A DNA stretch of 64,000 nt, from positions 186,001 to 250,000 of the forward strand of contig QPGO01000062.1 in NCBI GenBank assembly GCA_008632985.1, in the 5' to 3' direction. The position numbers were made by a program, and so were the translations under genes. This document shows positions 1-56,668 of the stretch, piece by piece (the stretch's first letter is position 1; each line of letters begins with the position of its first letter). The DNA comes from Psammoneis japonica. Its lineage: Eukaryota. The notes beneath the pieces were generated by a model that did not search any database, was not told where the DNA came from, and worked only from the letters and a program-made list of their open reading frames with translations.

Positions 1-1045
1 GCCTGATTGGCGTTGGCGAAGGAGGGGAGCACACAGAGCAGAGAGTGAGAAAAAGCGCTGCCTTGGCAAAGGATGTGTCAAGTGCACTGTCTTCCACAAA
101 CAGGATGGGCTGAAGACTGCTCTGTCACAACCACCTCTGACTCCCCTCTTCTGGAGGCATGCCGCCTTTGCTTCTTTGTCCCTTGTGTCGACGTCGTCCA
201 GCGCCAAGCACAGCTGGCATGGTGCTGTCTCAGGAGCCTGACTTGAGCATCAGCATTCTCCATGGAAGGCTGCATTGGCTGTGTCAAAGACATTCTCAGA
301 GGGCTGGCTTGCTCAGTTGTTAGAGCTTTTGCAGGTTTTTCTGAAATGGCGACATTGCAGGCAGCGGGAACAGCAGCACCAGGGATGCTGGGCTTGGACC
401 TTCACTTGAGGCCAGCACTGGCAACCCACCTCATGGCTGCACCCAGTGCCATTTTCAGTTTGAGCAAGAACACTCTGCAGATGTTTGTTTGAACAATTTG
501 GGAAGCAGCAGGCACACCCAGATTGTTGTCCATGATGAGCGATCGCTTGTTGTGACTGTGGAGACAACACCCAGCACCCCCTCCTCCAGACAAGCAATCT
601 CAGCTTGATCATCACATTGGGAGAATCAGGCAATTTTCATTTTCCAACCAATGCCTGCTGTGCACATGGCTTCAGGATGCAGAACAGGATAGTTGGGTGC
701 AGAGCCCCCATTGTTGCCAGCTGCAGCTGTCAAGAGGAGGGTGCCATTGTCACAGACTTTCTTGTGCTGTTTCAGAATGATTTGTTGTGATCCTCTCCAC
801 CAAGACTCACACTTTTGACATTGGCTCTCGCGCCCACCATTCACAGCACAGCTTTCAAGAGCATCAAGCATGCAAGACTCAGCTCCTTCCCCCCTTTTCC
901 AATGTGGAATTTGAGTGGTTTCACATTGCCCATGACACCAGCAATGCCTTGTGATTCTTGCCACCAATGGCGTCTGTTGAGACAGACAGGAAAAAGAACA
1001 GCCTTCTTGCTCTTTGAAAAGGTGCAGAGTCCAACAGAGGCATTC
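1..1045. repeat. TA/CG-depleted degenerate block 1 (probable decayed repeat or TE; continues beyond window start)
   Basis: Only about 2 TA dinucleotides seen in approx. 1 kb; few CG; TG/CA-rich. Overlapping Tyr-poor, Cys/His-rich ORFs in all frames. TA reappears abruptly at about 1048. Confidence 0.7.
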
Positions 1046-1190
1046 CGTACAAAGCCAAATTATTTTTATTAAACATTCAAAAGCTGCAATCCAGCAGTGC
1101 ACACAAGCAGAGAAACAGTCCATACAAAAATCAAAGTTTACTTTATACACTGTACAACATAGCTCATTTATTCATTCCCGTTACTCAATC

Positions 1191-2818: not shown

Positions 2819-4019
2819 TCATCCAACCAATTTCTTTTCATTGTCACGAGCATTCCAAACAAACCCAATGTCATCGAGTCTCATCTTTCTCCGAATCGAC
2901 AACTTTTGTTGCCGCGACCGCTGGACATTGACCCACGCGGCCAGCTTGACATTTTCACTACACGTCACGTTACAATGGCCGTGCTTTTCTTTGTACTGAC
3001 AAAGCTGTTCAAACATGTTGTTCCATGTTTCACGAAGACCCCAGACAAAGCCAATCGAATCGAGTCGTTCCCGGCGTTCGTCACTGAGCGTGTCTCGTGC
3101 TTGACGTTGGGTCTGGACCCAATTTCCCAATTTAGGATCCAATGGGTATTTGGTCGGCACTCGACAATCACCGTGGAGTGCCTTGTACTGTTCAAGGAGA
3201 CAAAACATGGTATCCCACGCGTCCTTGTCGCGCACGCACCATTCAAATCCGAGAGCTTGCAAACTCTTGAAACGAAGAGAAGACATGCAATTCTTTTTGC
3301 GATTGCGTCTCTGACGTTCGACCCAACGGCCCAATTTGGGATCAGCCTTGTAGCGATGTGGAACCAAGCAATTGCCGTGCTCTTTTTGGTATTGAACCTG
3401 CGAGATGATTGTGTATCGAGAGGTGAGTAAAAGAAAAGTACGGGATCAAGAGCTGTGTAGAGTATGAACTTACCAATCTCTGATACATGTCATACCACGA
3501 TTCGTGTAGATAGCCTCTTCCTTTTTCGTGATTTTGAATGGTATGCATCTCGGAGGATGGCATGATACCCGGCTGCTGCTGCAGCTCTTCAGAAGGAGGA
3601 GTCGAGGCTACCGATTGCGGGAGGGAAGAGGCGGTTGCTGCAAGATTGAGCCGTTCCGCGCCGAGAACTCTGGGTGTTTGTGCTGGTAAAACCCCTGGAA
3701 ATGCGAGTAGTGGTGGTGGTGGCGGTGGTTGAGAGGTAGCAAGGGCAAGTGTTGGAGACAAGGAGGCAAGTGTCGGTGTTGTCGCCAGAGCCGCCAACGG
3801 AGCATACGGTGCTAGTACAACAGGCGGCGGCGGTGGTGGTTGTTGGAGAGCAGAACCCAGTACAGACAGAGCCGCAAGATCCTGCTGCTCCTTTTGTCGG
3901 CGAAGGATCCGTAGGGCTAGAATTCGCTTTCTAGCTAGTTCAGCTTCGGAACCCTGCATGAGATTGTCGATTCCTTGAAAGTTCGGAGAAACTATTGGGG
4001 CAGGGCCATCAATGGCCAT
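2819..4019 (-). CDS. Helicase-associated (HA) domain repeat protein, paralog 2; exons 4019-3474 and 3397-2819
   Basis: Three HA repeats closely similar to paralog 1. A GTAAGT...TCGCAG intron (3473-3398) joins YQRL|VQYQKEHGNCLVP. Confidence 0.9.
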
Positions 4020-4310
4020 TTATACAAAATCGTTGGAGCTTATCTCGCTCGATACAAGTTAACTCAGATTGGAATAGATACACACTGTTCAAACAAAACT
4101 GTATGCTGCTTGGAGCTGGATCGTCTTTGATTCATTCAAACTTTTTCGTTTTTTGCCTACTTGCTGCTGTGAAACAAAAGTGCGTCAAAAAACAAGATCA
4201 GAAAAAGAATGCCCCGATGAAAAATCGTGAGCGGAAGTCGGGTAAAGATTTCATGCTCGTGGCTGGTTAACGACAAGCCCATAGCCCAATCTCTTTGTCT
4301 GACTTCGAGC

Positions 4311-4434
4311 CAAAGTAAGCTAAATGGTTAGTGTAAATCGTTAAGTGTCATTTCCACTTCGACACAAAGAAAGCTAAATGGTTAGTGTAAATCGTTAAGT
4401 GTCATTTCCACTTCCATACAAAGACAGCTAAATG
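4311..4434. repeat. 54-bp tandem repeat, about 2.3 copies
   Basis: Unit caaag.aagctaaatggttagtgtaaatcgttaagtgtcatttccacttc... starts at 4311, 4365 and 4419 (partial). Confidence 0.9.
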
Positions 4435-4869
4435 CTTAACGGTAGTGGTCAGATTTCAAAATCTGAGCAATACAGAAATGTCAATGATGAATAAGGATTT
4501 TAGATTGCTTCTGCCGTAAATATCATTACGCCAATGCCACTAATGAATACACAAATGAATTTGTATTCCATCCTTTTCCTGAACTTTGATCTATCGGCAT
4601 TTTCGATACGAGTGCTCGACGCGATGACAATGAGGCATGCTTGTATGTGTCATGGCCATAAGCTGTGAGGCGTACCGTCACATTTGGATTGAACTCGGGG
4701 ATCTTGATGTCGAAAGTAGCCATTTGTTTGACATTCGTGATTTTTCATCGCCCACAAACTGGGATTTCAACTGAGTCGAGTTGATGTTGGACGTGTTTCA
4801 AAGCACTGCGTTTGATGAAACAATTGAGGGCTCTGGAATTATGGCATTTTATGCCATGGAGACTTAAAA

Positions 4870-6930
4870 CAGCAAATGGGTTGACAATCAAGCAGTGATC
4901 GGGTTTGCCAACATTTCCAAAAATGTGACAACAAAAGTTGCATCACTCAACAACCAACAACATCTCAAGAGATGGAAACAAGAAAAGTGACTCCTCTTTG
5001 CACTTGAATTAAAAGAGACAACAATGCACAACAAACATTTGAGAAGGACAAGAAGCTCTTGAATGCATGGAACCAGAAGAGAGTCAATGAATCGCTCTTG
5101 TTTTGAACCTCTTGACCTGTTCTGTCCATGATGGTGGTTGGCTGAAAGGTTGGTGGTGGTTTTTTTGTGTGACTTGCAGCTTGAGGCATGTTGATGCATG
5201 AACACATGGCCCATGTGTGGTGTCACCTTTGGAAAGTGCCACTTGTGGAGCTTGGGTGGACAACTCTCTGTGCTCAAGCTTTGTCCGCCAAATGCTCCAT
5301 CAAAGTCCAGATGCTGCCACATCCCACCCGACCATTGACACAAAACAGTTCTTGCAAAATGTTGTTGCCTGTTTCCCTCTTCCTCTGCAGAGCAGCCCTC
5401 TTGGTGACAGTGCTGCCCACATGCCAGAATGTGCTCAAGAATGCTTTCCATTTTGCCAGCAAAGATGCCCAACGCGGGGCTGTGTGGGCTCGAATCTCTC
5501 TCAAGACAAGCTGACATTTGTGCCTGGCACTGGCGGCAATGCTCAGCCCTCCTTCCTGTTTGACTTCCCAGGAGTGTGCCCAGATCTCCTGCGTGCTGAG
5601 TGGCTCAACCACAAGAGTCGCTGTCTTTGTCAGTTTTGTCAGCAGGATGTGCCAAGGCTGCTCTGGCCATGTGTGCGCAAGGACAGCTGCGACAGCGCTT
5701 TCTGCTGTCAGCAAAGAGTGTGAGCTGGCTGGACTGCCCAACCCCACACTTCACAGCTCCTTGGCAGTCACTCCAAATCAAGTGCCAACTTGGGGTCAAC
5801 CGCACCTGGCTGGTTGCAATGCAAAGACAGCTGTGGCAGCACTTTGTGACAACAAAGAGAGTGCGAGCTGGCTGGGCTCCCAACCCCACACTTCACAGCC
5901 CCTCAGCACTGGCTCCCAATCAAATGCCAACTTGGGGCCAATGGCTGTGAAGCCATCATTGCAAATCCCTGTGCCTGCCCCCTCACACAGCTTTGCACAG
6001 GGTCAACATGTGTGGCCTTTGCAAGATGGGCCCTGGCTGGCTGCTGGCTCCTCAGCCACACGGCTTGCACAACAAGCCACCAAAACACAGAGCACTGTGG
6101 GGTGAGTGCAGCACAGCCCAAACAAGCACACCATGCTGAGATCACCCAGAGTTGGCTGCTGTCCTGGGGCTCCATTCAAAGCTGAGCTGGGCTGCTTGGC
6201 TCCTTGGTGTGCAGCACATGCTTGGCATCACATTCTTGTTGCCAAGCAGCCGCATGGCATGTGCCCACCATTTGTGCCTGCAACAGCGACCCCAGCCACA
6301 AAGAAGCCAACAAAAAGTTGAACCTGGTTTTGTGGTTGAAGAGTGAAGAAACTGTGAGTGAAGTTTGGTTCAAGATTTGTTGGCAATGCCAAGTGGGCAA
6401 CCAAAGAGAGGCGCCAAAAATGGCTGTTCTTGCTCATTTCTCAAGAGGAGCTTGCGCTCATGATGCAGGGTCTGAAGCAAGCACCAGCCAAGACAACAGT
6501 TTTTTTCTCTCTGCCCCACTTAAAACACAGCCTTTGAGTCAATGTGGTGCTCCTTCAACAACTCACGCACACTGGGAAGAGCAGCTGGAGCCAGGGCAGC
6601 TGGCCTGGCAGGGCTTGGCTGACACCCAAGCTGGGATGCTCAGCCTGGTGGCACACACTCAGTGCCACATTGTCACCCTCCTGCAACTGCAATGTGCCCC
6701 ACTCTTTGCACCTGCAGCAACCACCCTGGATCAAAAGAAGCCAGTGCAACTCTGGCCATGGTTGCATGGTCAATTGTGTGTGTGTGTTCAACGGTTGATT
6801 CCCCTCTTTTTTTCTCTTTTCCTTTAACCGGCCACGAACATGAAAAAATTGCCGGAAGTCGCAGTTCGCAATGTCAAGGACGCTTTGACGTGGCACGATC
6901 AGCACGATCCGTTCGATTCAATCGCCAGAC
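4870..6930. repeat. TA/CG-depleted degenerate block 2 (probable decayed repeat or TE)
   Basis: Residual TA is nearly all in TTAA; strong TG/CA excess; six-frame ORFs lacking Tyr. Contains an internal direct repeat. Confidence 0.7.
5682..5941. repeat. Diverged direct repeat, period about 144 bp (5682-5799 and 5826-5941)
   Basis: Shared gacagctg...gagctggctgg...cccaaccccacacttcacagc...tgccaacttgggg; differences include CG/TG and CG/CA. Confidence 0.85.
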
Positions 6931-8335
6931 CTTATTTCTCCGTGAAGGTTTCTCCGAAATGTATCTTTTCACGGAAGACGACCAGACGAAGTGGGATGCG
7001 CGAAAGATATTTCCACGTGTCTCCTACCGCCCCCCGAGGAAGTCATACGAACATGTCATTGCTCTTTACGTGCTACAGACAAGTTCGAAATACTCTGTTT
7101 TGTCTTTTACTGTAGGTCCGTTACTCAAGGTGGTACGGGTACAAAAGTGTGCCAGATTCTACGCACGTGGAGCTTAGCATGTTTTCTACACAAATCGCCA
7201 AAGTCGGCTCGCCAACTTGAACCCTCTCCAGGACGATGGAAACTTTGACATTTCACATGACAAAGTGTTTGGACTACTTAATTACACTCCCCTCGACTTG
7301 TTTAAATGAAGAGAAGTTACAAGTTTCCGTGGGTTTCTCGTTTTGCATGGCTCTTTAAAACTCGAACGTCGCGATGCATGAAGAATGATTAAGCAGAGGG
7401 CGCACCACAGTTCTCGGCCCGTTCATTTTCTACGTGGCCTGGCACAACCCAAATCTGTTTAGATTCAGTGCATTTCGCCCTGCAGAACAGTTTTTGGGAG
7501 TGTTTTCTGCCTCGCGACGCAAAATGACACGCAAAACAACACGGCGGACAATGGCATTTCGCCGATTTCAAAAGTGCAGTTGTTTCTGAAGCACTTTGCA
7601 GTGTGCTCTCAATGGAGTGTCACACGTCATGGCATGAGGCGTGTGACAAGCTCAAGAGCACACAGGTTCATGTGGGTGGCTGATGGTGAAATTTTGAGCT
7701 GAAGATTGGTGTTGACACAGCTGATTTTGTTGCATCAAAACGCAACTTGTGCATCACCATTCATTCTGTGCATTTCGTTGAGTGCTCGTGCGTTCACATT
7801 CTTTCAACTTGCACACATGTTGTCTTTCCTCATTGTTGTTTTGTTCTGCAGGGTCTCCCTTGCCATGAGACATCCCTGAGAGAGAAGTGCTTCCTTTGAA
7901 TGTCGCTTCTACATCTGGGATGCCAACAATCTGGGTCTGACCGTCTGCCATGATCTGGGCATTTCTTGACTTTAATGCCAGATTGTTGTCAACTTACAAG
8001 CCAATTCTCTCCTCAAATGTAACATGAGAACTGCGCAAGTTTGCAAGCCTCCAAAACCCCAATTGCTTCCCACTTTCAAGTGTGGTCATTCCTTTCACAC
8101 AATGCAGACCTGCGCCCCAATTGACATTTGGGGTTTCTCGTTCTTTTAACACAAATGTTGCTGCACATGATCCACCCTCCTTTTCTGCCAACTCGTCCTG
8201 CATTTTGTCTCTTTGCTGTGCCGTTTTCAAATCCAATTCCCAATTGCCACACGTTGTTGCATCCAAACCGCATTGCACAATGTTTTTTTTTTAATTTTCA
8301 CTCATCTAGATTTTGTTGTTTGTTTCAAATTACGT

Positions 8336-9469
8336 TCACACACCAGTTTGGTTGGTGGCCATTGCGCCATTTGCTGCCGCTCCGTTGCCTGCAGCCACCG
8401 CCTGCAATGGCAGGTCCTCTCCCATTGGCGCCGCCCATCCTTCCTCTCTCTCCTTTCTTTTTTCCTCTCTTTTGCATTTCTTGTTTTCCTCCTGAGACAA
8501 GTTTGTCTTCTCCCGCCTTCTCTCCTTGAACCATGCACCGAATCCCTGGTTGTTCTCTCTGTCTTTCACCACCCACTGACGTGGATCATTGTGCTTCTTG
8601 ATCCCCTCCTTGCTCCATCCTTGGTTCCTCTTTGCCGACTCCCCCGCTGCCTGTGCTGTGCACTTTGCAGGAGCAGCATCTTTCACAGTTGGCTTTCTTC
8701 TCCTTGCAACATTTTCTTCCTTTTCCAATTTCTCTGCTGTGTCCTGCACCTTGTTGCAGCAGTTCAAGCACACTGGCAGAGCAAACGCCTCCGACGAAAC
8801 TGAAAGCCATTCCTGAAGCATGTCGGTTGTGCTTCTGCCAAACTGCACTTGTCCCACCACCGTCAGCACCACAGTTTCCAAGAACCACACGTGTGTGTCC
8901 TTGTCATTTCTTCCCTTTGTCAAGTCTTTGCAATCCACCAGCGATCCCTCTAAAGCAGCAACTGCACAGATGATGTCAAAGGAAGAGACACTCATCCCGT
9001 CAGACAATCGCCTCTGGCACAATCACCGGCACGCACACATCTGCTTGCCTGTCATTCTCCTCCCAATGTTGTCCTGCACATTGTTCCTCTTTCGGTTGAG
9101 TTTGGTCCTGAACACCTCTTTGCATTCATCCCAGAACTTCTCCGGTGAAGACGCCATGCTCCTCAACTCCTGCAGAACCAATTTCATGCAATCTCCTCCC
9201 ACAGCGAGTTCATGATCGAAGATTGTGAACTTGCGACATGGCCAAACACTCTCATTGACAACCTTGGTCAACATCGATGCCATCAATTTCTTGCCCACCG
9301 CAGGTGCACGATCCAACACAAGACATCCCTCTGTGGGAGTCACCACCGAACTTGAATCGCCACCTGCATGCTGGAATCTGTTCAGCTCCCCATGTTCGTT
9401 TCTTTGTGCATGCAGCAAGGCCGCCACCGCAGGACTCATGGTGACTTCATGTGACACCACACAGATCAA
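8336..9469 (-). pseudogene. Decayed repeat-associated protein with S[D/S]EAFAL...KYT...GWSxEG..YN.L...V..DR motifs; intron 9048-8962
   Basis: ORFs 9023-9469 and 8336-9022 join in frame through an 87-nt intron with a GCAAGC donor and TGCAG acceptor. From memory, the motif set resembles a multicopy diatom hypothetical family found in DNA-transposon-like repeats; this was not verified by search. Confidence 0.6.
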
Positions 9470-10162
9470 TCCAATGATTGTGTCAGTTCATCAGCAACTC
9501 TTTGTCATGTCCTTTCTCAATCTCACTTGCCGCTGGAAGTTGCACTTCCTCCCTCCGCTGCTCCTGTGAGAACCGCATCCTCCATCATTTTTTACCTTCC
9601 CAATGGCTTCCTCTTGTTTGGAACTTCCGTCCTTTCCTGTCGCTTTGTGAAAGGTCAGTTGCAAAAAGAGTGCACTTTTGCATGTGATTTTCTTGGTTTT
9701 GTTGTTGCTCGTGTGTCCTCTCTTGATTCAAACAGGTCTTTGTGTCATTTTTGAGTGCTCATCCCCAACCCCATGTTTGCATTTCTGTCAACGTTTCACT
9801 GTTTTGAATTGTGCACCTTTGTCAGCCAATCCAACACACCAATGAAGATTGCCACATCATTTGGGTCAATGCCAAACAATGTGTCACATCTGCTTGTGTT
9901 AATGCGTGCATTGCGCTTCCTTCTGGATGCAACATCTGCCTCATTTTGTGTGCCAAGTCGTGTCAAACCTCCCATTTGTTGTCCCTGTCTTAACAGGTCA
10001 TTCCCTCTACTTCCCCGACACCACATTTGTCCATTTGCTCTCTCTGTTGCCCAAATTTTCCAATCCACTTTAATGTCCACTGAAGTGTGTCATTGTCACT
10101 GAGATGTGGTTGTCGTGAGTCGTTCCCATTGTGGGAACACGTGTTCCCTCCACTGCAATCAC

Positions 10163-10864
10163 ATGCCGCCAATTGATGGTCAAATTGGTCATTTTGCTGG
10201 TGGTGGTGTGGAATCACACGGTGGTGCGGCAAGCTTTGCCTTCTCCGCCAAGGTCATTTGTAACCCCGCTCTCTTTGCGGCACAAATTCGAAGCCGTTTT
10301 AATTTCCTCGGCATTGGTGGTGGTGTTGGCGGTTTTGCGATTGCCTGTCGTCTGCTTGTTCCTGCCTGCAATGCCTGCAGCATCGAGTTCCACCGTCCCC
10401 GTCATGATCTTGGCTCTCAGTGGTGCAATGCCATGTGGCACAACAATGCCAGTCGCTTTCCGACCCTGATCAATCAGGACTTCCTCTCCGAAGATGATGC
10501 TGTGCGTCAGTTGCACCGTCTGAACAACTTAAAGATTTTCTTCAACAACTGCAATGGGCGAATGCTTTTTGACAACAACGCGACACAGAACCAACTCGAG
10601 GAGATGCTGTCCAACGAGTGTCCTGAAGGCACTGTTGTCATTTCATTGGACATGATGTTTTGTGTTGATGCGCACAAATGGAGGGATGGAGCATTCTTTG
10701 TTCCTGCCCATCCAGACGATCTGTCATGGGGAGGCGGTGTCGACAGGCACCCACTTCACAAGCACACCAAGAAAAGAGACGATGCCGTGGAGACCAGGCA
10801 TTCCACTGGGAACAACCTGGGGTCTGACATCAAACGTAAATTCAAGCCTGCCAAAAGTGGGTGA
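10163..10864 (+). pseudogene. Decayed DOT1-like class I SAM-dependent methyltransferase
   Basis: Motifs in DOT1 order: ES[H<-Y]G, FL[G]IGGGVG (motif I), SIE, QDFL, IFFNN, PEGTVVISLD, LSW...PL[H]K[H]TK. No Tyr in more than 230 aa. Confidence 0.65.
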
Positions 10865-11019
10865 CTTTGCAATTCCACTTTGTTTGCAATGTAACTGTCA
10901 TCCATGCAAGCAATGCATTGTCAATTGGCCCTTTACACATGCCTGCTTTGTGCCCACATTAACTTGCCACTTCGCTGGTTTTGTGTTCCAACACACACTT
11001 GTTCACACGCTTGCTGTGT

Positions 11020-12240
11020 TCACACGCTCACCATGTCAAAATTGTGGACCAGACATGCCATGTTCCTTCGACTCAAATTCGTTTTGTCAGGCAAAGCTCG
11101 GTGCAACATTCTTGCATCAAAAACAAATGCAGTGCCTGCTTCTCCAACCAGCAATTGTTTTTCCAAACCCAACCCAACCAATTGTCTTTCGCGTTCCTTC
11201 TCATTCAATGTCACCTCACAACTGTCTGGCCACATCTCCACTGCACCATTGTGCTCCGTTGTGTCACCGAGGAACAGAAACATGGTGAAAATTTTGTTGC
11301 CAGGCAACAATTTTGTTTCCACACAATCGCGATGAATTTCCCCCTTTGACCAGAAGTTGGATCTTGAACTTGAAGCAGGAGCGTTTGCTGCTGTGTGCCG
11401 GGATGTCTTTCTGCTTGAATCACCTGCCAGGGGAAAGCCAGGTGCAGCATGCATGCAGACAAAAGGTTGTTTTTGTCATGCCCTTTGTGACATTAAAAGG
11501 CTGTGACACGTCGCCGTGATGCATTGGCTCTTGTCAGTGGCTGTGTGTTGCACTCCTCCCCATGTGTCACGCGTCCATGCGGCTCTTCACTAACGTGCAC
11601 TGACACTGCACGGTTTTGGCGGAACAGTGTGGGCACGTGCGAAGGAACACACAGAACTGCACAGAGTTTTGCGCGTTCGACAGTGATCAACGTTGCTGCA
11701 GACAACTCCCACTCAGGGTTTCGAACCCCTGGCCTCCTGCCCAGTGGTTGCGATGTGCCACTCCGCCATGAATTCATGGTGCAGTGTGCATGCAGACAAA
11801 AGGTTGTTTTTGTCACGCCCTTTGTGACATTTAAAGGCTGCAACATGTCGCCGTGACACATCAACTCTTGTCAGTGGCTGTGTGTTGCACAGGAATTGGC
11901 TCCAGCATTTTTCTGCCAACCCAGTGCCTTCCGCCTTTTCCTTTTTGTCAATGGCGAACTCACCAACAAAACGGCATCCTTCCTTTTCTCCCTTCCTGCT
12001 TGGTGCCTTGTTTGCAAGTGTTGTCATCTTGTTGAGCAGGGGTGGTGGTGTTTTGAATTTTTGCAAGTGGCCTTTTTTTCTTTCCTGGTGCTCTCTTTCT
12101 TTGGACACCGCCTTCTTGCTCTTGACGACATGAGGTTTCATTTTGCCTGGGTGTGTTGGTAACTTGCCATGTTTCTGGCATGACATTGTCGGCCAACGGG
12201 CAAATTTCCGGCATCCGTTCACAGAACACTTCCGCGCCAT
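11020..12240 (-). pseudogene. Decayed 2OG-Fe(II) dioxygenase (PhyH-like) with N-terminal C-x4-C...C-x2-H zinc ribbon; disrupted by an internal duplication and a frameshift
   Basis: IHRD...TMFLFLGDTTE.NGAVEMWPDS...GEAGTAFVFDARMLHRA...SRR gives the HxD...H...R facial triad and 2OG-binding Arg. N-terminus is MARKCSVNGCRKFARWPTMSCQKHG. Confidence 0.7.
11441..11890. repeat. 113-bp direct repeats (11441-11553 and 11778-11890) flanking 224 bp
   Basis: Colinear copies ggtgcag...ctgtgtgttgcac; differences are mostly CA<->TG and CG<->TG. Confidence 0.92.
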
Positions 12241-12372
12241 TCTCTGAAAATGCCTGTTCTGCCAAATCAAATGGTGCCTGGTCTTTTTCTTTCAGTGGAA
12301 CAGACCCAATCCAGTGAAAGTCCACACCCATCGCTTTCCAACAAAAATGGCTTTCTCGCCAAACAGCTGTTG

Positions 12373-12507
12373 CCAACGGCAGCCCATCTGTTCGTGTGCA
12401 CCACGGGTGTTTTTTTTGTAAATGGTCCCGTGTGATGTTTTGGCAACGGCAGTCTGTCTGTCGGGTGCACCACAGACGTTTTTTTGTAAACAGTCACGTG
12501 TGATGTG
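12373..12507. repeat. Approx. 70-bp tandem duplication
   Basis: caacggcag...tgcaccac...ttttttgtaaa..gtc.cgtgtgatgt occurs twice; includes CA<->TG swaps. Confidence 0.85.
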
Positions 12508-13184
12508 ATCTTCGTCGATCCTGTTCACTGAATGATCTCATTGAATGGGTCATCCCAGCCATCTCAAAAGCACAGAAAACAATTTTGTTGCTCACAATCC
12601 TGCCAGTGATGATGTGAGACATTTTCACATCACCACAGCGGCAGACACAAAGCAAAAGCTTCTGTCCACCGCACATTCCGCACCACAAACAAACTGTTGC
12701 TTTTTTGGCAATGCACGTGTCTGTCAACAGAGCAATTTGGTGTCACTTTTTTATTGTTACAACCATTTCTTAACAAAGTGATTCCACATCACTTTTCTGT
12801 TGTCAAACATGTGTGTTGACAGAAGAATTTGGGCATCAGTTTTTTGTCAATGCACACATCTGGCAATTGACACCTTTGGTGCCACTTTTTTACTCACACA
12901 CTTGGTGCTAGCCTGCACAGCATCGTGACATGAGGTGCATCTCCCACAGCAAACCACATTCTCCCGAATCTTGTCCAAGTTGCTGATCAACTCATGTTGA
13001 GCAGCAAACAGATGTCGTTTGGGTGACTCTGTTTCTTGTGTTCCGCAGCCTTGTCATTCCCTTTGCAAAACAAAAAAAAGAATCACACCCAATCCCTTGC
13101 CTGTCAGGCCACATTGCCGAAATGGAACCAACAAATCTCTTTTCCGTCCAATGCATTGCACTTCTCTCCCAACGACATTCCACC

Positions 13185-14161
13185 TCACTCAACCTGCAGT
13201 GTTGACCAACAATCCATCTGGGCGTTGTCCTCATTGGGTGCGACATCACGCGGTGGGCCAAGAGGGTTGTGTTGATCGAGGGAGGAAACAGGATCTTCTG
13301 TCGGACAGGAAATTGAGGGGGGGCCACAACTGCCATCGTGATGGTCGGCTCCAATGAACTCAGGAACATCCACAGGACTGTCCTCTCCAAGGGCGGACAC
13401 ACCATCATCTGCAAACAAAACAAATCGGCGGACATTTTGGGAGGCTGCACCAGCGGCAGCAGCATTGGCGGCTGAACACAATCGACCAGAGCGTCTGACG
13501 AAGGGTGGGCGCAGTCCACTTCCGGCAGAGGGAGGACAAGCTGGAGAAGAATTGTCCGTTGGTGTGGGAGGAGATGGAGCTGGATTCCAAAGGACTTCGG
13601 GGAGGGGAGGAGGGGGTTCATCGTCGGAGAAGCCAAACCCAGCAGGATCATCATGGTCGTCCAGTGACTCATCATGGTCATCGTCTGGAGGGGGAAGTGC
13701 GTGGGCGGCAGCAGAAGATGTGGCACGCAGGCAAAGGGACATTTCCTCCTTTTCATGGCAGGGCAAGTGCTTCTGTAGATGAAGGGCAATGTTGGAAAAG
13801 GGAACACGGCAATGGGGACATTTGGGTTTGTTGGTGTTGGATCCAAGGGAGCCGACGGAGACAGAATCCAGAGGATGAGAGGAAAGAGATGTTCCGCCGG
13901 ATGAAGAAGACAACTGGGTTGTGTGGCGCAAAACTGTGTCAATGGGGGATGGAGACCAGATGCTGCGGTGCAGTGCCGAGACAGGTGACACTGCACATTG
14001 TTTTCAGAGTCAAATCCACGTTGTCCGCAACGAGGACAACCAAAAGACTTGGTGGAAACGGCGGAATGGAGGCAGCCAGTTGTGATGTGCCTGCTGAGGC
14101 CATGTTCGGAAAAGAAACCAGTTCGTTTGCACCATGGACAAACAAGACCATCAGAAGACAT
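13185..14161 (-). pseudogene. Decayed multi-C2H2-like zinc-finger protein with acidic/Pro-rich region (frameshifted)
   Basis: CPWCKRTGFFSEHGLSRHITTGC, CPRCGQRGFDSENNVQCHLSRHC and CPHCRVPFSNIALHLQKH lie across two frames, followed by a DDDHDESLDD...PPPP region. Confidence 0.6.
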
Positions 14162-15705
14162 GGCCCATGCACATGGATGAAGAAGTTGAGAAGAGAATCG
14201 AAAGGAAAGAGTGGGCGCAGCAACAATCACTTGGGGATGTGGTGAGGGTGGAAACATGGAGATGCAATGTGCGGATGGACGGGAAGGAAGGATGGAATGG
14301 GCAGGGAGAGAAAATTGAGAAAACAATTAGAATCTCGATTGACGGACACAGGCGGCAATTTTGATCCAGAAAGTTGATTGACACACAATTCAGAAATTAA
14401 AATGGCGCCAAACACACACACAAGGCTTGTCGGATGGGGGGGCAAACATTTAAATTGAGGAATGTGGATGTTTGATGTTGAACATTTCAGAAAAGCTGAC
14501 TTGACAAATCAGCACGATCTTGGATTAAAGGGAGAAAATGTTGGGTTTTATTTCAAGAAATCTTGACGGCCAGTGCGACACCTGGATTGTTGGTGTCCCA
14601 GATGCACCTTGCAACGGCCACGGCAGTCTGACGACAAGTCCAAGTCACAGACGCAGCATCCGGGTGGCTTCACAATAAATGTAGAAGCTTGGGTCTGTGG
14701 TGTCTGAAGATGTTCAAGCTCTTGACAGCTCAGATTTGTCGCAGAGCAATTTTGCCGTGCATTTGGCGTGCATCCAAAAGGTGATGCGGAGTTTTGTTCG
14801 ACAGAGAAACGCACCATGGCAGTTGTGATGGTTTGCATTGAGTCTCACAGCTGCAAGGTGGTTTGTGACATAGAAACATGTGACTTGTTTGCCTCATTTG
14901 CCAAGCCTGTGCAACACATTTGGGGGTGAAAGTCAGGGCAAATCATCATGCACAGTGCCAAGTCTCCAAAAACAGCACAAGAGTGCAAGCCCAAAAGAAA
15001 AACCAGCTTTGCAACTTGTCATTAGAGTGCAGAGCTTATTTTTCTGGGGCATCATGTCTCCATTGTTTTTGTGGAGTGAACATTCACTGGAGTTGTTGCC
15101 GCCAACGTGCGAGTTCGCCTTGACAACATGTTGCACTGCATTCTGAGATTTTGGAATGTGAAAAAACAACTTGCATTTGCATCATTCTATCATGACAGAA
15201 ATGTGTGAGCTGTCCCTGGCCCTTTTGGAGAAATCGGGTGAGTGAAAGAGGAGCTACAGAAAGATGCGGACGACGCCATTTTGATGGATTTTGAGATTCT
15301 CGTCAGCGGTGGGGTGTCGCGAGGAGTCGTGATGGAGTGCCGCTTCGTGTTTTTGTACTGCGTCTATGTAGGAATGTACGTGCTTGGCTCTCGTGTAGTT
15401 TCTACGTAAAAAGTGTACCAGGCGATCTCTGGACCGCCCTCTTAATCATGCTATGGAACACTTATCGATCGCAAGTTTCTCTCCAGATCTTTGCTAAGTA
15501 ACACCTTGAATACAATATATATTAAAAGCTTCATAATGCGCAATGTCTGGAAGTCATTCTTATTTAAGTAGTGTTGAATTACATACAGCGCCCATGGATG
15601 GTGCGTGGAACCTTCCGCGCCGCACTGATCCCGGCGTGGGCGGCCGGCCGTCCCATTATTTTTCCGTCTGTCATCTTCCGAGCCTAATGGTCTTGGACTC
15701 CCGTT

Positions 15706-16035
15706 CTCTACTCTCTACTCTAGAGTAGCTAGCTAGAGTAGAGAGTAGAGAGAGAGAGAGAGAGAGCTAGTAGCTCTACTGTACTCTATCTACTCTAGTA
15801 GTAGCTACTCTAGCTAGCTATCTACTAGAGAGTAGGCCCTACTCTCTGCCGGTACTCTCTCTCTCTCTCTCTAGAGAGAGAGAGAGAGAGTAGAGTGTAA
15901 ATACCGTAGACGGACTCTCTTCTCTTTCATACGGTTCAAAGATGCTGTCTACGGTACCTAAGGTAGAGATAGACAGGTCTCGCGAGGTGTCCGGTATTCT
16001 CTCTCTTTAAGAGAGAGTAACCTCTCTAGAGAGTA
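15706..16035. repeat. CTAG/TAGAG/(AG)n-(CT)n low-complexity self-complementary island
   Basis: Dense ctag, tagag and ctcta words; perfect palindrome CTACTCTAGAGTAG at 15715-15728. Confidence 0.85.
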
Positions 16036-16216
16036 GAGCACAGCGTAGTCTCTTGCGCGACAAGGAGCAAACCAATTTTGTAACCGACCTGCCTCTTGCA
16101 CTAGTCGATACCCAAAACATCCAGCTAGAGATGATAGAGTTAGGTAGCTTCATTTTCATGTTATGATTCTTAAAAAATATCTCAAGTGTGTCATGAACTC
16201 AAGATTGTGCAAAACT

Positions 16217-48605: not shown

Positions 48606-48969
48606 TGGTGCAAAATTGGGTCACTTGCAACTACAACGACTTTTGTTGAGAACTGAGAAAATGAGAAGAAAGAATGCAACGCAAAAAAATCTTTTGGGTG
48701 GTGATGCGAGGAAAGATACGAAAGTGTGCATTTTCAAAAGCTTTCGTACTGAAAATACGTAGAAACCTACGGTGTTCTTTCCAGCTTCCGGCAAATCTAC
48801 TGACAGACAACAGACCATGCGTTTTCGTTCGCACGACTGACCTGAGTCATGCGCTTGGTTGCGTTCTTGGTCGTTCCAAAGGTGACATCGTAAGGGCTAA
48901 AATTCCAATCATCAGCTTCTACATAGAAAGGGCTGTGTGACGCCAATCAACTGAAAATTGTTAAAACAT

Positions 48970-51900
48970 CCACTGGCCGCTGGAGAAAGTGTCTTTCATC
49001 CCACACAACCATCGGCTCTCACATGACACGGGGCTCTCCCAGCACTCACCACACTGCCAGCTCAAAGCTGGGAAGCACCAGTCTGCAATGTTTCAAACCA
49101 AAAAAACACACACTTCTCTTTGAGAGTTTTGGCAATGGCACAATCTTCAAGATGGTGCTGGCATGTCTTCTTGTCTCACCACACATGCCCAGCTGCCAGA
49201 CACCAGACAATGTGCCCAATCTTTTGCATTTCCTGATGCAAAAAAGACGCATCATGCAAACTCCTTGGGGCTGTTGGGATGAATGTTTGCTGCATGGAGA
49301 TGCCATGGCCCCCACCTGTGAGACAAGGCATGGTGGAGTGCAGCAAATGATGAGAGCTGCAGCACTGCGATGTGTGCAAGCGCAGACAGCTGTGCCGCTC
49401 AAGGGTGCTCTCTCTCTGACCTTGAACAGATTTGTCCAAAGGCCAGCCTGGCGCTCCTTTGCAGATTGTGCTGATCTGAGCCTTTTGCCCTCCATTGACA
49501 CTCCACCCCAATGGCTGCATTTAAACCCCCCTCTTTTCCTCTTTTCCCTCACACCTCCGATCTCTCCCAGCTTCTCCATCCAACCTGTCTTTGCTGCTCT
49601 GGGGCTGCTTCCTTGCTCTTCATGACAAAAATGTCCTCACCCGGTGACTGTTGGCTTCAGTCATTGCTCTCACCACCAGTTGTTTTCAGCGGCCAAACTC
49701 ATGACTCATGCCATCTCATGGTGTTCATTCGTCATCCACCATCTCAAACAAAGAAACATGCTGCACAATGCAGCCATGCTTGCTGTGAAGAACTTCCTTG
49801 TTGAGATGTTTGCAAGCTGCTCAACTCATGCATGCATTCCACCTGTTTGCTGTTGTTGATCATGACCAAGTCAACAACAAGAAAGAGAGCCTGTGCAGTG
49901 CCCTTTTTGCTCTTTTTTCTTGTTTTGTGCTCTCATTGTTGACAACCACAAGCAGAAAGGCAAGTCCAACAATGCATTTCAAGCATCAAAATTTGATGAA
50001 GTTGCAAAGGCATGTTCACATGGCCCCTTGTTGTCCAGTTGCTCACACTTGCCATCCCACCCTGTGGACATGGAAAGCAGCCAGCTTGATTCTTTTTTTG
50101 AGCTGTGTGCCAAGTGTGCTGCCTCAAGTTGACAAAGTTGCAGGAGCAGTGCCAGGGAGAATGTGCAAAGGCATCTGACCTCCTGGAACATGAAAATGAC
50201 ATGTTGAAACTCGGGCCAAAGTTTTCGCACTTGTTGTGCCAAGCATTTGCTTTTGCAAGTGAGCGTGCCCCACAAAAAAAGCAAAGCCACCACTTGTGCA
50301 ATGCTGTGAAGGATCCCTTGACATTTTTGTTCTTGTTCAACATGTCTGCAAGGAAGCAACACACAACTCCTGAGTGCCATCTGGGCCCAGCATGCAGCAG
50401 GCCTGGGCAGTGTCCCATTGTCTGACAAGATGTGGGCAGTTGTTTGCAAGATTTGTCTGTTGAGCCCACATCTGCAAGAAAATGTGCTGTTGTTTCTTCA
50501 TTTGCTGCTTTGTCTTCATTTGTTCACAAAAGTGCACATGCTGAATGATGTGCAGACCACATGGCTCATGTCTGTGAGCATGTCTTCATGTCTGCGAGTG
50601 TGTCCTCAGCTGTTGAATGTTTTGTGTCATTCAGCTGTGCACCACGGGTCATCGACATTGCTGTTGTTTGGTTTTTGGTTGTCACAACAGCTGAGCAGCA
50701 TCTCATTGTTGCATCAGAGCAAAAAAAAAAACATTGTTTCATTGCTGCATTGCCAGCTGTGACATTCATGTGCTGCTCAAATCATCATCTCATGCAAGAC
50801 ATCTCCTCCTCCAATGGCTGCCACACACGGCAACTGTGTGGGGAGGAAGAAGCTTCTGTGGCAGCCCAGGCTGCACTGGCTGCTCAAGTGTCTCAAAGAT
50901 TTGTGCATGCACGGGCTTTCAAGGCACAAATGAGGATGGCATGCACTGCTGCATTGATGACTGCAACAAAGATGGCACCCCTGCTCCTCCTCTGACCATC
51001 ACTGCCACAGCATCAAGAAATGCCCCCACATTTGCTGAACCCTGATCTTTTCAAATGAAGCACACAGCCCATCTGCTGGGAAACATGTGCCATGAAGCTG
51101 GAGCTGAACAGGACATTGGTTTGACAGAGAGTTGATTGTGCTGTGCAGCAACAATCCAGCATCAAACATGGAGAATGAGAAATGTTGGAAACACACAAAT
51201 TTGGAAAAAACTGGTCAGCTGCAAGATCGTCAAAACAAGCACGTCATTGTGCTTGCTCACATTGTCAGTTTGAATGTCAAGAACATTGTTGGATGGACAA
51301 GGCAGCTCATGCACTGCAAATGGGTGGAGCAAAGGAGACATTCTTGCTGCAATGACTTGCTGTGCATGCTCCCAAATTGGCCAGCAAATGACTGTGTCCC
51401 CATGAGCAGCTTGCCAAGTGCTCACAACAAAGAGGCTGCCAGTGCCAGATGAAAATCCGGGCATGTCTCTGGCGGCTGACATTGGAGAGCCATGGCAACA
51501 AGCCATTTCCAAAGATGCTCCCCTTGTTGCTGGAGCTGAAGCCAAAGAGGCCTGTGGCACCAACCACACATGACCCAGCTGCGTGCTGGGCTGGAAGCAA
51601 GTGTGAAAGGCGTGGTGCATGCAATGAGCAGGGGACCTTGAGCTTGCTGTCTCCATGTGCAGCCACCACAGTCCAACCCTGGCTGGAGGCTTTGTGGGTG
51701 AAAAGGAGCCCTCAATTGCTGGACAGCTGAGAAATCCAAGGTGCAAGAAACCGCAGCTGTTCAAGGTCTGACCAAAGTGGCAAGAAGATTTGCCACCTGC
51801 AAGCCACATGTGCCCATCTTCAAAGTGTCCCTGCATTGTGAGTGGCAGCATGTCCAATGAGTTGTTCTGGGGATTGTGATGACAAGTCTTTTGCCAGTGC

Positions 51901-53055
51901 CAAAGATGAGGTCAAGCACCAGCTCTCCTCCCAGCTCTAACTGGGCAAACTTTGGCGAGTGATGACTGTCCCAAGAATGGCTTTGTCTGTCCTCTCCCAA
52001 CCAATTTTGCAGGGCTGTTCATGTCCCTCATCCAATGGAGTCAGCAAAGCATGGCTTCAAAGCAAGTGCTCCCATGAAATCACAACCACTTCGTGGCCAT
52101 TCTCAACTCACCTCAACTGTCCACAAGGGCTTGACTCGAGAAGTTGAAGAAGCAGGAAATGGCAAAAAAAGGAAAGCCAACTTGAACAAAAAAGTGCTCA
52201 AGTTGATCCTCTGTTTTATGCCTGAGAAGATGGCCAGCAACTTGTTGTGACAAGGCTGCAACCAAGCCTTGCTTTGCATGCAACAAATGCCAGTCACATC
52301 AATCACAGCCACCCCTGGACCCATCTGCCAACGGTCAACCCAGCAGCTTGCCAAGCACGCATCTGTGAACTCCTCCAAGTCAAGAGATGGAGGCTGCAGA
52401 GACATTCTGGTCCAAGGCTGCTGGTGGTGGAAGAATGCACACTAGATGCCACATTTGATGTCAGAAAGCCACCAACACAGGTGCCAAGTTTTGCCTTTCC
52501 ATGATGCCAGAACAAGTCTCCCATCAGATGAAAAAATGAGAAATGATGCAAGAGAACCTCCAGCCATGCCACGAGCAATGCACTGCATCTTTTCATGGCT
52601 GTCATGGCACTGTGCAAAAGATTGTTTGGCAACGAAGCCCAAGCAACCCAGCTGATGACAGCAGCACAGCTTTTGCAAACAGGTGGCACAAAAGCCGAAG
52701 TGTGCACATTTTTTGCACAATGAGAATGAGTGTTGTGACAGAGAGGTGCCTCTGCTTGAGAGGCTCAAGAACAAGAATCCCCTCCTCCAAGACTTTTGCC
52801 AGACACCTCACTGGAAAGATGGCTCTGGTCTGTCCACCCTGTGCAAGCACCAAACCTCTTTAAGATGATGGTGTCTGTGTGTTGAGACTCAATGCAGACA
52901 TGTTGCCAACCATGGCACACTTTGCATTGAGCCCTCAAAGCTGCTGCATGACTGTTTTTGAATCCCCCACTTTCTTCTGCTTCTGTTCATCTGTTGTTGT
53001 TCTCTCATTGGTGCACCCACCATGCTGAAAACTTGCTGAGAGGACCTGCAACATT
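48970..53055. repeat. TA/CG-depleted degenerate block 4
   Basis: Only a handful of TA in about 4 kb; CG rare; TG/CA-rich. Segment 49229-49403 is homologous to 56318-56475. Confidence 0.75.
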
Positions 53056-53127
53056 GAACATAGTAAGAAAACTCCCTCTCGTCTTTTGAGTAGCCCTTCT
53101 CTGCTGTGGTATCGCTGGACTTATACA

Positions 53128-54291: not shown

Positions 54292-54669
54292 GAGAGACTT
54301 TTCGCACAAATACCATTTTGGAAAAAGGCGACACTCCGCAAGATATATATGCACCTGTGCTTGTGTTGTGGCATTTGGTTGCTCATTGCATATATCAAGC
54401 ATTTGTACTTCACGTGTCGTGTGCTGTGTTGGACACTCGCCGACAATATAAAGTAGTAACTTGATTACCGTTCCACGATATCTACATGCTACTAGAGAGT
54501 GTTGAGGAGTTCAAAAGCATTCCAGTGAGAGCCACAAGAAAGTATAGCGGAGTTGGCATCAGCAGTGTTATACCTACTGGCAGTAGATGCAGTAATCGGG
54601 TCCAATTTGGATTCTGTAAACCCATTAGAACTCGAAGGAGACGTCACAGATGCAATAGAAAGCATGGGA

Positions 54670-56375
54670 GCTGTCTCGCACGATCGCCGGGGCGTGGAGC
54701 ATCTTGTGACCGCATCGATTCTTCGAATGAGGGAGGTCGACCAGGCCCTTTTTGAATCGCATGTGCTTGACAATCTTGACCTGCGATGTCTCAAGATCTT
54801 TCCAAGTGTCATTCTTGGTGGCAGCAGACAAACAACCAAAGAAGTTGCCCTTCTTGCAGTTGGGGCGCAACTTGTTGCGGCGGCGACCGGGTTCTTGGAC
54901 CCAAACACAACAACCAATTGCAATGTTCTCAGCAGTCTTGGCAGCAGGGGATGCATCTTGATCCACAGATGCAACAGTCACACCAGAATCCCAGGTGGAT
55001 GTGTGGCAGCAGTGTCCACAGCAGTGGTGGGTGGTGGAGGCCCCAATGATGAACTGTGCAGCACTGCAACAAGATCACCTGCAAGCACCCAAGAGTTTTG
55101 TTTCAGCCAAATTGCACACATCTTTGGAAGTGACAGTCACGTTGGTGCCTCCAGAATGTGTGCTGACAGCCACAGTGGGTGATGCAGTTTTGAGAAGCAG
55201 CCAAACACAACAAGCAGCTTGAAGCACTCCATGCGTTCCTGCAGGTGCACCATCATCAGAGGAGCGGAGGGCTTTTTACCCTTGTCTGTGGACTTGTTGT
55301 CTTTGTTGAACACATCAGCAGTGATGTCATCCCAGTTCTCATGCACTGGTTGGGGTCCTGGTCAGAAGTGAAGGTGTGGCAGTTTCCAGCAGGAACAAAA
55401 ATTGCATCTTCTCCAGCATCGATTGCCTTGGTCATTGCTGCTTTCTGGAGAGTGCAGATCAACTCAGATGGGCATTGTAGATTCCAGGGGCATGGGACAT
55501 GGAGGGCTGCTTTGTCCATCATGGGTTCACCATGCAGTTATTGGTGGTGGTCACAGCAAGTGGCATGATCAGCCATTTAAAGAGTTGCTGGCACAGAATC
55601 TCAACAACATCAACATCAAGACTTGGCTGCACAGAGTCATCTAGAATGACTGTGTCCAGAGTTTTTTCCAAGTGCTGGCTGTTCAGGCAAGCACGTGCAT
55701 CTTTGTGAGCAGGGTGAAGCCCAAATTCAAAGATTGTGGTGGGCTTTGTCATCATCAAATTGACAGCTTTGGTTGACTTGGACATTGCGGGTGCATGTGA
55801 AAGATGCTGCACAGAGCTCTGGTGTGTGCCCTGCAGTGGCCCTGCAATCACAGTTGGCAGGAAAATGCGTGAGATGAAGACTGAGTTTTCTCAAAAATTG
55901 AGCTCCGCAGCTCAAATGCTGCTGGCATGGGTGCTCTGATGGCAGAAAATGGTGCAAGAGCACTCACAACCCAACAGACAATGGTTTGCAAGAACAGTGT
56001 GACACATGCCAGCAGGGCTGGGACAGCAACAACAACTTGGTGCTGGCCAAAAAGAAAGCGCATGTCTGCCAGTTGTTTTTTGGGGTGCCAAGCCTCTGGC
56101 ACTCGGACCTGCGACAAACTTGAGCCTTCTCTGTGTCCTGCTGCAAGTGCAAGGTTCACTTCCTCAAGCATTTGTGCTGGCAACCTCAGAGCCTTTTCAG
56201 CATTGTTTCATTTTTCCAGCTTTGTTGAGACAGGAACGCCTCGATCAGCGTGACTGGACCGGACTGCGCCACAGCATTGGCACGCATTGTCCTGTTGTCA
56301 GAAACCAAGCTCTCCCGTTTCCTGATGCCAGGAAGACGCGTCATGCAAACTCCTTGGGACCGTTGGGGTGAATGT
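54670..56375. repeat. TA/CG-depleted degenerate block 5
   Basis: TA nearly absent; contains a copia fragment and a copy of the block-4 repeat at its right edge. Confidence 0.72.
54730..54920 (-). mobile_element. Ty1/copia polyprotein fragment (post-integrase SH3-like region)
   Basis: GCCVWVQEPGRRRNKLRPNCKKGNFFGCL...WKDLETSQVKIVKHMRFKKG matches the copia consensus FGC.V.V...R.KL......G.FLGY.......YD..T..V.....V.F.E; conserved GY appears as GC. Confidence 0.75.
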
Positions 56376-56668
56376 TTGCTACCTCGAGATGCCGTGGCCC
56401 ACCTGTGAGATGGGATAGAGAGTGCAGCAAATGACCGTTGTATGACGTGTCGGTTAGACGACTGCGCCGCTCGAGATCACGTCTTTTGTCGCTCGCGATG
56501 TCAGCGGGTCCGGGTCCATTTCAGTCACGCCGGTGACTACAGTAATGGGTGAGCATGTTACATCACTGCATGCAAGGATTTATGATGAAGATAAACTAGT
56601 GTTATGAAACTCTATGGCTCGAAACGATTAAGCATCCCCGGGATTAAGTTTAGCACCGCTTTTACGTC

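Follow-up and report, generated by a model that had tools for sequence, protein, structure and literature searches.

In the literature searched, Plavaka-type DNA transposons are described from fungi and are also mentioned in genome papers on red and green algae; they are placed with EnSpm/CACTA in the CMCT clade (EnSpm/CACTA, Mirage, Chapaev, Transib and Plavaka; Kojima, 2025, PMC12730594). According to the available part of that account, the PlavakaB elements of Agaricomycotina fungi have the termini CATCA..TGATG and a target-site duplication (TSD) of 2 or 3 bp, and some members carry a 2-oxoglutarate (2OG) dioxygenase gene as cargo. Here we analyse a stretch of 64,000 nucleotides from the diatom Psammoneis japonica (assembly GCA_008632985.1, contig QPGO01000062.1, positions 186,001 to 250,000), referred to below as the window. 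Between positions 7385 and 15449 of the window lie what we take, at a probability of roughly 0.7, to be two nested cut-and-paste relics, the inner of which is a transposase-less Plavaka-like element that has gained new cargo and has been hypermutated in place. Outside two papers in which both words occur, full-text literature searches found no report of Plavaka elements in diatoms.

The closest described mutational processes act on repeated or foreign DNA. Repeat-induced point mutation (RIP) of ascomycetes changes CpA to TpA and yields TpA and AT-rich DNA. It resembles the process described below in that its targets are repeats, which it mutates in place and as DNA, and in that it is context-specific, produces transitions only and destroys reading frames. 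It runs in the opposite direction: in the DNA studied here TpA is lost and the G+C content stays near 49%. In the chlorarachniophyte Bigelowiella natans, TpA is converted to TpG/CpA in integrated giant-virus and virophage DNA and in transposon-like genes, and an ADAT2-like deaminase is the candidate mutator, as far as the available part of the preprint goes (bioRxiv 10.64898/2026.01.13.699255). The same part defines TpA-hypermutated clustered windows by a Rho TpA of at most 0.43 and a Rho CpA+TpG of at least 1.52. This preprint was the sole description found, and full-text literature searches returned no report of TpA hypermutation in diatoms.

Boundaries of the inner unit and the outer repeat

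The features on which the argument depends are as follows.

7385..7911, left arm of the outer repeat, with its inverted end at 7385-7402
7910..7911, left TA target-site copy, read from the sequence (empty-site joint 7910 to 14606)
7912..14604, inner mobile unit, 6,693 bp, a probable non-autonomous Plavaka-like DNA transposon delimited by terminal inverted repeats (TIRs) and empty-site joints
7912..7936, plus strand, left TIR, CATCTGGGATGCCAACAATCTGGGT, beginning CATCT
8339..9487, minus strand, EAF/GWSxEG helical protein pseudogene with an in-frame TGA at 9023-9025, from phmmer family matches
10103..10861, plus strand, putative DOT1-like S-adenosylmethionine-dependent methyltransferase pseudogene, from the ESM Atlas
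11023..11475, minus strand, predicted PhyH-type 2OG-Fe(II) dioxygenase, C-terminal double-stranded beta-helix half (HRD..H..RR), from Pfam and the Atlas
11441..11890, two 113-nt copies, 89% identical and 337 nt apart, within the dioxygenase gene
11716..12291, minus strand, dioxygenase N-terminal part, sharing the frame of 11023-11475 and containing a CxxxxC..CxxH motif ('zinc ribbon')
12995..14326, minus strand, finger-protein pseudogene with two CPxC..H..C units; a third unit and an acidic tail are encoded in another frame, that of 13188-14003
14580..14604, minus strand, right TIR, minus-strand reading CATCTGGGACACCAACAATCCAGGT
14605..14606, right target-site copy, changed from TA to CA by T>C
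14605..15449, right arm of the outer repeat, with its inverted end at 15431-15449

The two TIR arms are 25 nt long and 84% complementary, with 18 of 20 letters matching when counted from CATC, and their local score of 30 exceeds the maximum of 27 obtained from 300 shuffles. The four letters that differ between the arms make up two TG/CA dinucleotide pairs and nothing else. The filled site reads TA-CATCT...AGATG-CA. Evidence on other copies came from the sequencing contigs of one public run, of which 5,913 contig pieces were aligned. Three contigs (two of X1 and one of X2) link 7910 to 14606/14607 and omit exactly the stretch between the TIRs, with two letters at the joint being assignable to either side. 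These paralogous empty sites have a single TA, and therefore TA was duplicated on insertion and the right copy later underwent a T>C change.

Summed contig depth, which is not a copy number, is 2,077-5,484 across 7472-15283, apart from the spike of a 337-nt unit described below, compared with 39-61.5 in the unique flank at 15718-17000; over the inner unit the bins other than the spike read 2,077-5,094. All parts of this stretch are thus repeated to a similar degree. A blastn self-comparison found no second copy within the window, and tblastn of 99 EAF-family proteins against the window gave matches confined to 8300-9600.

Outside the inner unit, a second pair of inverted ends is present. ATGATTAAG..AGGGCG matches across the two ends if a 3-nt gap is allowed, patchy similarity continues for about 50 nt beyond it, and the local score of 28 exceeds the highest value of 26 reached in 300 shuffles. 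At the right outer terminus a unique contig begins at 15418 and the loose ends of other copies fall at 15442; in the left arm TpA remains at 7390, 7431 and 7460, and thereafter there is nearly none. The termini at 7385 and 15449 bound an outer repeat, roughly 1.4 kb in total (7385-7911 and 14605-15449), that the inner unit struck. The first-pass annotation of this DNA had taken 7385-15449 to be a single transposon-like element with weak inverted termini. Both of its ends are indeed inverted repeats, but they belong to the outer repeat, and the mobile unit is 7912-14604; the TIRs and TSD that it proposed to look for lie at the inner boundaries, as the 25-nt CATCT repeats, the TA/CA duplication and the empty-site joints. 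Directly to the right of the outer repeat, at 15698-15906, there is (GA)n / CTAG-rich palindromic low-complexity DNA, and a similar stretch at 40565-40614 adjoins an assembly gap (N run 40707-40989).

The EAF/GWSxEG gene and its Plavaka-bearing relatives

The protein family that links the inner unit to described transposons is the one represented by the EAF/GWSxEG pseudogene. With phmmer, 99 cluster representatives were found at E≤1e-3 and 15 at E≤1e-10, the best having an E-value of 3.5e-48, and these align to the N half of the window open reading frame (ORF), to its C half or to both. The repeat-associated protein of the first-pass annotation is therefore a member of a real family. No Pfam family was found in any of 18 members tested. 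The AlphaFold model of one member, P0067, is all-helical with a mean pLDDT (predicted local distance difference test score) of 75.6; Foldseek returned no fold match to it (best E 0.87), and the best VIA-align result, a Z of 4.9 to small three-helix DNA-binding domains, was within noise. In relatives at L001, L003, L006, L007 and other loci the gene is divided into an N-half and a C-half ORF, separated by 20-70 nt and frequently out of frame with each other, and a short conserved intron may be the reason. The two halves share a frame in the window, where one TGA separates them.

A search of metagenome contigs for relatives of this gene yielded 22 loci, and tblastn aligned the window ORF to 21 of them. 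Where the locus is long, the gene adjoins an ORF of about 1,000 residues with the Plavaka transposase domain PF18759, which was matched in L006 (E 2.3e-10, 40.7 bits) and L007 (E 5.1e-11, 42.8 bits) above the Pfam cut-off of 26.3 bits. BLASTP identified homologues of these two ORFs in L010 (47-51% identity) and L012 (24-26%). ORFs with the Ulp1 domain (Peptidase_C48) are present in five of the EAF loci; they are 1,265-1,488 residues long in L006, L007 and L010, and partial and truncated by contig ends in L008 and L016.

In all three elements for which both ends are defined, the EAF gene ends approximately 430-560 nt from one terminus. In L010, perfect 25-nt CATCT..AGATG repeats lie 10.6 kb apart and enclose the transposase, Ulp1 and EAF genes, so that L010 473-11146 has the appearance of an autonomous relative in full, 10.7 kb long, with a Plavaka-like transposase, a 1,488-residue Ulp1-domain protein and the EAF gene. 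A Copia-type Pol fragment lies to the right of this element. L003 (1271-6605) and L004 (330-5727) share a 5.3-kb relative with CATCA..TGATG ends and TA at both flanks, and homology between the two loci stops 2 nt beyond the right terminus. This relative consists of the EAF gene and a gene of 433-483 residues of no assigned family, without a transposase. The latter gene (P0220/P0221) has 19 relatives with nearly invariant H..H and D..H..G residues. An HxD..H pattern can be read in it, but BLASTP gave no match to the window dioxygenase, its profile matched nothing in PDB sequences or Pfam, and its model (pLDDT 36.7) was unusable; we do not claim it as a dioxygenase.

No transposase was found in the window, either by Pfam among 92 ORFs of the TpA-poor domains or by tblastn of the four Plavaka-like ORFs (L006, L007, L010 and L012), which returned nothing at E≤1. 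The same search with four Ulp1-domain ORFs likewise found nothing. Approximately 4.5 of the 6.7 kb of the inner unit is filled by other genes, leaving no room for a transposase, and its membership in the family can therefore only be non-autonomous. From the letters of the window alone, no transposase had been recognised in this copy, and Plavaka had been named beside KDZ as a kind of transposase to test for. The absence holds by Pfam and tblastn; the link to Plavaka is supported by the PF18759 transposases that adjoin the EAF relatives, by the termini and TSD, and by fuller relatives with the transposase (L006 and L007, with homologous ORFs in L010 and L012).

The inner unit resembles PlavakaB in starting with CATC and ending with GATG and in its 2-bp TSD (TA/CA), which falls within the range of 2 (or 3) bp given in the available part of PMC12730594; relatives of its EAF gene adjoin PF18759 transposases, and it has a candidate 2OG dioxygenase, as do some PlavakaB members. 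It differs in being in a diatom, in having no transposase and in its fifth terminal letter, which is T rather than A. Among the relatives both versions of the terminus occur, CATCA..TGATG in L003/L004 and CATCT..AGATG in L010. The predicted dioxygenase is PhyH-type rather than TET/JBP, and the DOT1-like and finger genes are additional cargo. In the part of PMC12730594 available, neither EAF/GWSxEG nor Ulp1 partners are mentioned.

Taken by its genomic neighbourhoods, EAF/GWSxEG appears to be a signature gene of a Plavaka-like family. There are CACTA/EnSpm elements that encode a second, TnpA-type protein and have captured Ulp1 protease domains. The autonomous relatives L006, L007 and L010 are similar in gene content, their transposase being accompanied by a large protein with an Ulp1 domain and by a smaller accessory one, the difference being that the EAF/GWSxEG protein matches no Pfam family or solved fold. 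It is a conjecture on our part that EAF/GWSxEG is the equivalent of TnpA.

Decayed cargo genes and TpA depletion

Between the EAF pseudogene and the right TIR the inner unit contains three further decayed genes. For the DOT1-like ORF, 20 of 30 ESM Atlas feature matches were to DOT1 (PF08123) clusters, with a top score of 0.96 and 205 of 256 features in common, and the clusters matched come from diatoms, haptophytes and giant viruses. The ORF contains GxGxG-like and IFFNN motifs, which we take to be those of DOT1. A word-index protein search gave 543 candidates, none at E≤0.01, and PDB sequences gave none. No report of DOT1 cargo in transposons was found in the literature searched, as far as it was available.

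The C-terminal half of the dioxygenase matched Pfam PhyH at E 2.8e-4 (21.6 bits, against a cut-off of 22) and 2OG-FeII_Oxy_3 at E 1.8e-3, and 27 of 30 Atlas matches were to PhyH clusters. There was no Tet_JBP match in Pfam, though a distant link could be missed with a query that is hypermutated and just 151 residues long, and against PDB sequences only noise was obtained (EctD, E 1.1). By these matches the enzyme is predicted to be PhyH-type and not TET/JBP. Its N-terminal part (11716-12291) matches no Pfam family, and the 'zinc ribbon' is a CxxxxC..CxxH pattern in a sequence with inflated Cys and His content. The gene is broken by stops and by the 337-nt duplication, 337 not being a multiple of three. 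Summed contig depth here is 68,706 (11378-11811) and 29,658 (11812-12245), compared with about 50 in unique DNA, and contig joints go back by about 330 nt; at other places in the genome the 337-nt unit is probably arranged in tandem, as a satellite. The duplication was not reported by Tandem Repeats Finder.

The finger ORF matched zf-C2H2_4 at E 0.0044, with 18.1 bits against a cut-off of 27, and has three CPxC..H..H/C units spread over two frames. The repetition of the units argues that they are real, whereas single Cys and His residues and the 'zinc ribbon' could be products of the decay of TAY and CGY codons.

The first-pass annotation had described these genes as a chromatin- and base-modifying toolkit, by analogy with the TET/JBP dioxygenases that travel with fungal transposons. 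Part of this stands: the methyltransferase has its DOT1 clusters in the Atlas but no Pfam, PDB or word-index match, the dioxygenase is upheld as a 2OG-Fe(II) half by PhyH but not as a zinc-ribbon protein, and the C2H2-like fingers keep their three CPxC units while scoring below the cut-off and in two frames. As the dioxygenase is predicted to be PhyH-type, the TET/JBP link falls away and the term 'base-modifying' is left without support. The DOT1, dioxygenase and finger ORFs are absent from all 22 EAF loci, and the cargo set is therefore lineage-specific and not a conserved toolkit.

The whole of this region lies in a domain with an unusual dinucleotide composition. The TpA-poor domains of the window are listed here.

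7461..15355, TpA-depleted, CpG-poor and TG/CA-rich, 7,895 bp
1..1047, TpA-poor, 2 TpA
4866..6824, TpA-poor, 2 TpA
48963..53060, TpA-poor, 5 TpA
54657..56379, TpA-poor, 5 TpA

In 7461-15355 there are 45 TpA dinucleotides, compared with 514 expected from base composition, giving an odds ratio of 0.088 against 0.598 in the background, which comprises the 46,995 bp lying outside the five domains. The CpG odds ratio is 0.55 (background 0.98) and that of TG+CA is 1.64 (background 1.16). It can be seen from counts per 500 bp that TpA falls from about 10-40 in the background to 0-5 between 7501 and 15000. By the definition used for Bigelowiella natans, the region is a TpA-hypermutated window (0.088 and 1.64 over 7,895 bp). 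In the four further domains the odds ratios are 0.018-0.049 for TpA and 0.14-0.33 for CpG; their edges are sharp, and no Pfam families were found inside them. The mutation pattern thus extends beyond the element that we studied. At the edge of one of them, a retroviral/Copia-type integrase SH3-like domain (PF25597, 54628-55074, minus strand) was matched at E 2.7e-5, barely under the cut-off, which suggests that retroelements were struck besides DNA transposons. The stretch at 4000-4866 is repetitive (contig depth 5,017-5,671) yet has a normal TpA content, so not every repeat in the genome is TpA-depleted.

Indirect evidence indicates that the low TpA content is the result of mutation and not native composition. 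An alignment of the EAF protein with 51 relatives has seven columns in which Tyr occurs in at least 30% of sequences, and at these the window has TGC (Cys) four times, CAC (His) twice and TTC (Phe) once. The contigs contain many diverged copies, and differences from these show the same direction. Of 960 such differences, the 40 best supported were examined and fall into the following classes.

Window CA/TG, other copies TA: 15 of 40
Window CA/TG, other copies CG: 8 of 40
Window TA, other copies TG: 1 of 40
Window CG, other copies TG: 1 of 40
Other transitions: 12 of 40
Transversions: 3 of 40

In the internal repeats of the element, paired TG-versus-CA changes account for 9 events among 39 mismatched bases, compared with 1 event among 115 in four repeat pairs outside the TpA-poor domains. 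Such pairs are expected if an ancestral palindromic dinucleotide was struck independently on either strand. An element of the cut-and-paste type moves as DNA, and mutation has also reached the host TA that was duplicated; the changes would therefore have arisen in place, on the DNA, and not by way of an RNA copy.

These changes have had marked effects on coding sequence. Tyr occurs once among the 1,423 residues of the five ORFs of interest, compared with 2.4% in eight control ORFs of the window, while Cys (4.4% versus 1.7%) and His (4.4% versus 2.6%) are in excess. The region has 133 stop-to-stop ORFs of at least 60 residues across the six frames, many of which exist because TAA and TAG are nearly absent, so that ORF length alone means little. 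Loss of TAA/TAG together with the Cys/His excess thus inflates ORF lengths and gives the appearance of zinc fingers. Near-saturating TpA to TpG/CpA changes, together with CpG to TpG/CpA changes, have wrecked all the genes of the element. Inactivation by hypermutation at TA, which had been suggested from the window alone, is supported, and the loss of TpA is confirmed by the odds ratio.

The genes of the window outside the repeats are long and mostly without introns. They encode a P450, a pyridoxal phosphate-dependent decarboxylase, TMEM43, a plastid-type sigma factor, a helicase-associated-domain protein and a class-III aminotransferase. The closest relatives of the aminotransferase share 72-77% identity, and the named organisms are all diatoms among the matches listed (for example Helicotheca, Rhizosolenia, Cyclotella, Skeletonema, Thalassiosira and Seminavis). 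The window belongs to the nuclear genome of a diatom.

Interpretation and alternatives

We propose the following history. An outer repeat of about 1.4 kb with degenerate inverted ends would have been struck at TA by the 6,693-bp element. This would be a transposase-less derivative of a Plavaka-like (EnSpm/CACTA-related) family that kept its termini and the EAF gene near one end, while the transposase and Ulp1-protease genes were presumably replaced by genes for a DOT1-like methyltransferase, a PhyH-type dioxygenase and a zinc-finger protein. It presumably depended on autonomous relatives acting in trans to move and to reach many copies. After insertion it decayed, apparently in place at the DNA level, through TpA to TpG/CpA changes alongside ordinary CpG decay; Tyr codons were erased, stops and frameshifts accumulated and the 337-nt duplication arose. 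The suspected mutator is a TpA-directed adenine deamination of repeated or foreign DNA. The cargo may once have modified chromatin to the benefit of the element, as in the anti-silencing or self-marking role put forward in the first-pass annotation.

Several observations weigh against this history or narrow it. Two of the three empty-site contigs have just 22 letters on their shorter side, and since the contigs are 80-92% alike they are paralogues and not alleles. Gene order is known from the window copy, the repeat contigs being short, and depths are sums over contigs. Because the inner unit has no transposase, its assignment to Plavaka depends on the termini, the TSD and one linked gene; the termini CATCT..AGATG agree with the PlavakaB motif in four of five letters, the part common to the unit and the transposase-bearing metagenome loci is the EAF gene alone, at 26-37% identity, and L010 has no recognisable TSD. 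The DOT1-like ORF has no Pfam match at E≤1, so that language-model features and DOT1-like motifs point to its identity indirectly, with no hidden Markov model match, and the absence of the cargo ORFs from the metagenome loci counts here as well. Finally, 12 of the 40 copy differences are transitions outside TpA and CpG, and therefore other decay is mixed in.

If the locus were instead a single element of 8.06 kb bounded by 7385 and 15449, the CATCT repeats would be subterminal and the contigs without 7911-14605 would be internal deletion derivatives. The outer ends do score above shuffles as inverted repeats, the right boundary fits the start of the unique contig at 15418 and the loose ends at 15442, and the TpA-poor domain covers inner and outer parts alike. 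However, the edges of the omitted stretch coincide to the base with a 25-nt inverted repeat, one TA is left behind, the inner termini and TSD fit the Plavaka family to which the EAF gene is linked, and one X2 contig has only 7851-7910 and 14606-14828 of the outer part. We therefore regard a single element as unlikely. Still less probable is a chance mosaic, in which repeat fragments and decayed host genes, unrelated to each other, would be neighbours in hypermutated heterochromatin without sharing a mobile unit. The lack of co-occurrence of the cargo with EAF relatives would be expected of a mosaic, as would the repetitive region to the left (4000-6824) and the separately amplified 337-nt unit within the dioxygenase gene, but the precise empty-site joint spans all four genes together, and the similar summed depth across the bins of the unit, its TIRs and its TSD argue for one mobile unit.

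We give very little credence to an origin as a fragment of an integrated giant-virus or virophage genome of the kind that is TpA-hypermutated in Bigelowiella natans. Nucleocytoviricota DOT1-like and methyltransferase clusters are among the Atlas matches, and the available part of bioRxiv 10.64898/2026.01.13.699255 links TpA hypermutation to viral inserts. Against this, the sequence is multi-copy with a TIR and TSD and has relatives beside Plavaka transposases, no viral hallmark gene was found, and 13 pattern matches to EAF in IMG/VR viral contigs yielded no confirmed relative. The nested arrangement, with a Plavaka-like element inside an outer repeat, thus remains our preferred reading.

The mutation process is close to that of Bigelowiella natans in the conversion of TpA to TpG/CpA confined to sharply bounded foreign or repeated DNA, and in the available part of the preprint DDE and reverse-transcriptase genes are enriched among the TpA-poor genes of that organism (bioRxiv 10.64898/2026.01.13.699255). 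The host there is a chlorarachniophyte (Rhizaria) and not a diatom, and the process was seen live in mutation-accumulation lines, whereas in the diatom window we infer it from its end products alone. Depletion in the TpA-poor domains of the window is also far deeper (0.02-0.09, compared with 0.45 for the giant-virus region in the part available) and is coupled with CpG loss. A broader and more doubtful proposal is that diatoms possess a genome defence that acts as RIP in reverse, driving TpA to TpG/CpA near saturation in DNA and Copia-type elements, that it is perhaps old and widespread among stramenopiles, alveolates and Rhizaria, and that the cargo of the inner unit was a chromatin-directed counter-measure that allowed it to spread until the defence reached it.

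On the reading that we prefer, Plavaka-type transposons would now be placed in diatoms, and EAF/GWSxEG would be a conserved accessory family of theirs without a Pfam model or solved-fold match. Such elements would appear able to exchange their transposase for chromatin-type enzymes. For annotators there is a warning, in that regions without TAA/TAG and Tyr codons give long false six-frame ORFs and false Cys/His 'zinc fingers'. Hypermutation of repeats from TpA to TpG/CpA is now seen in a second lineage, a stramenopile, and whether eukaryotes have a shared or a convergent system to 'mutate the invader' becomes testable.

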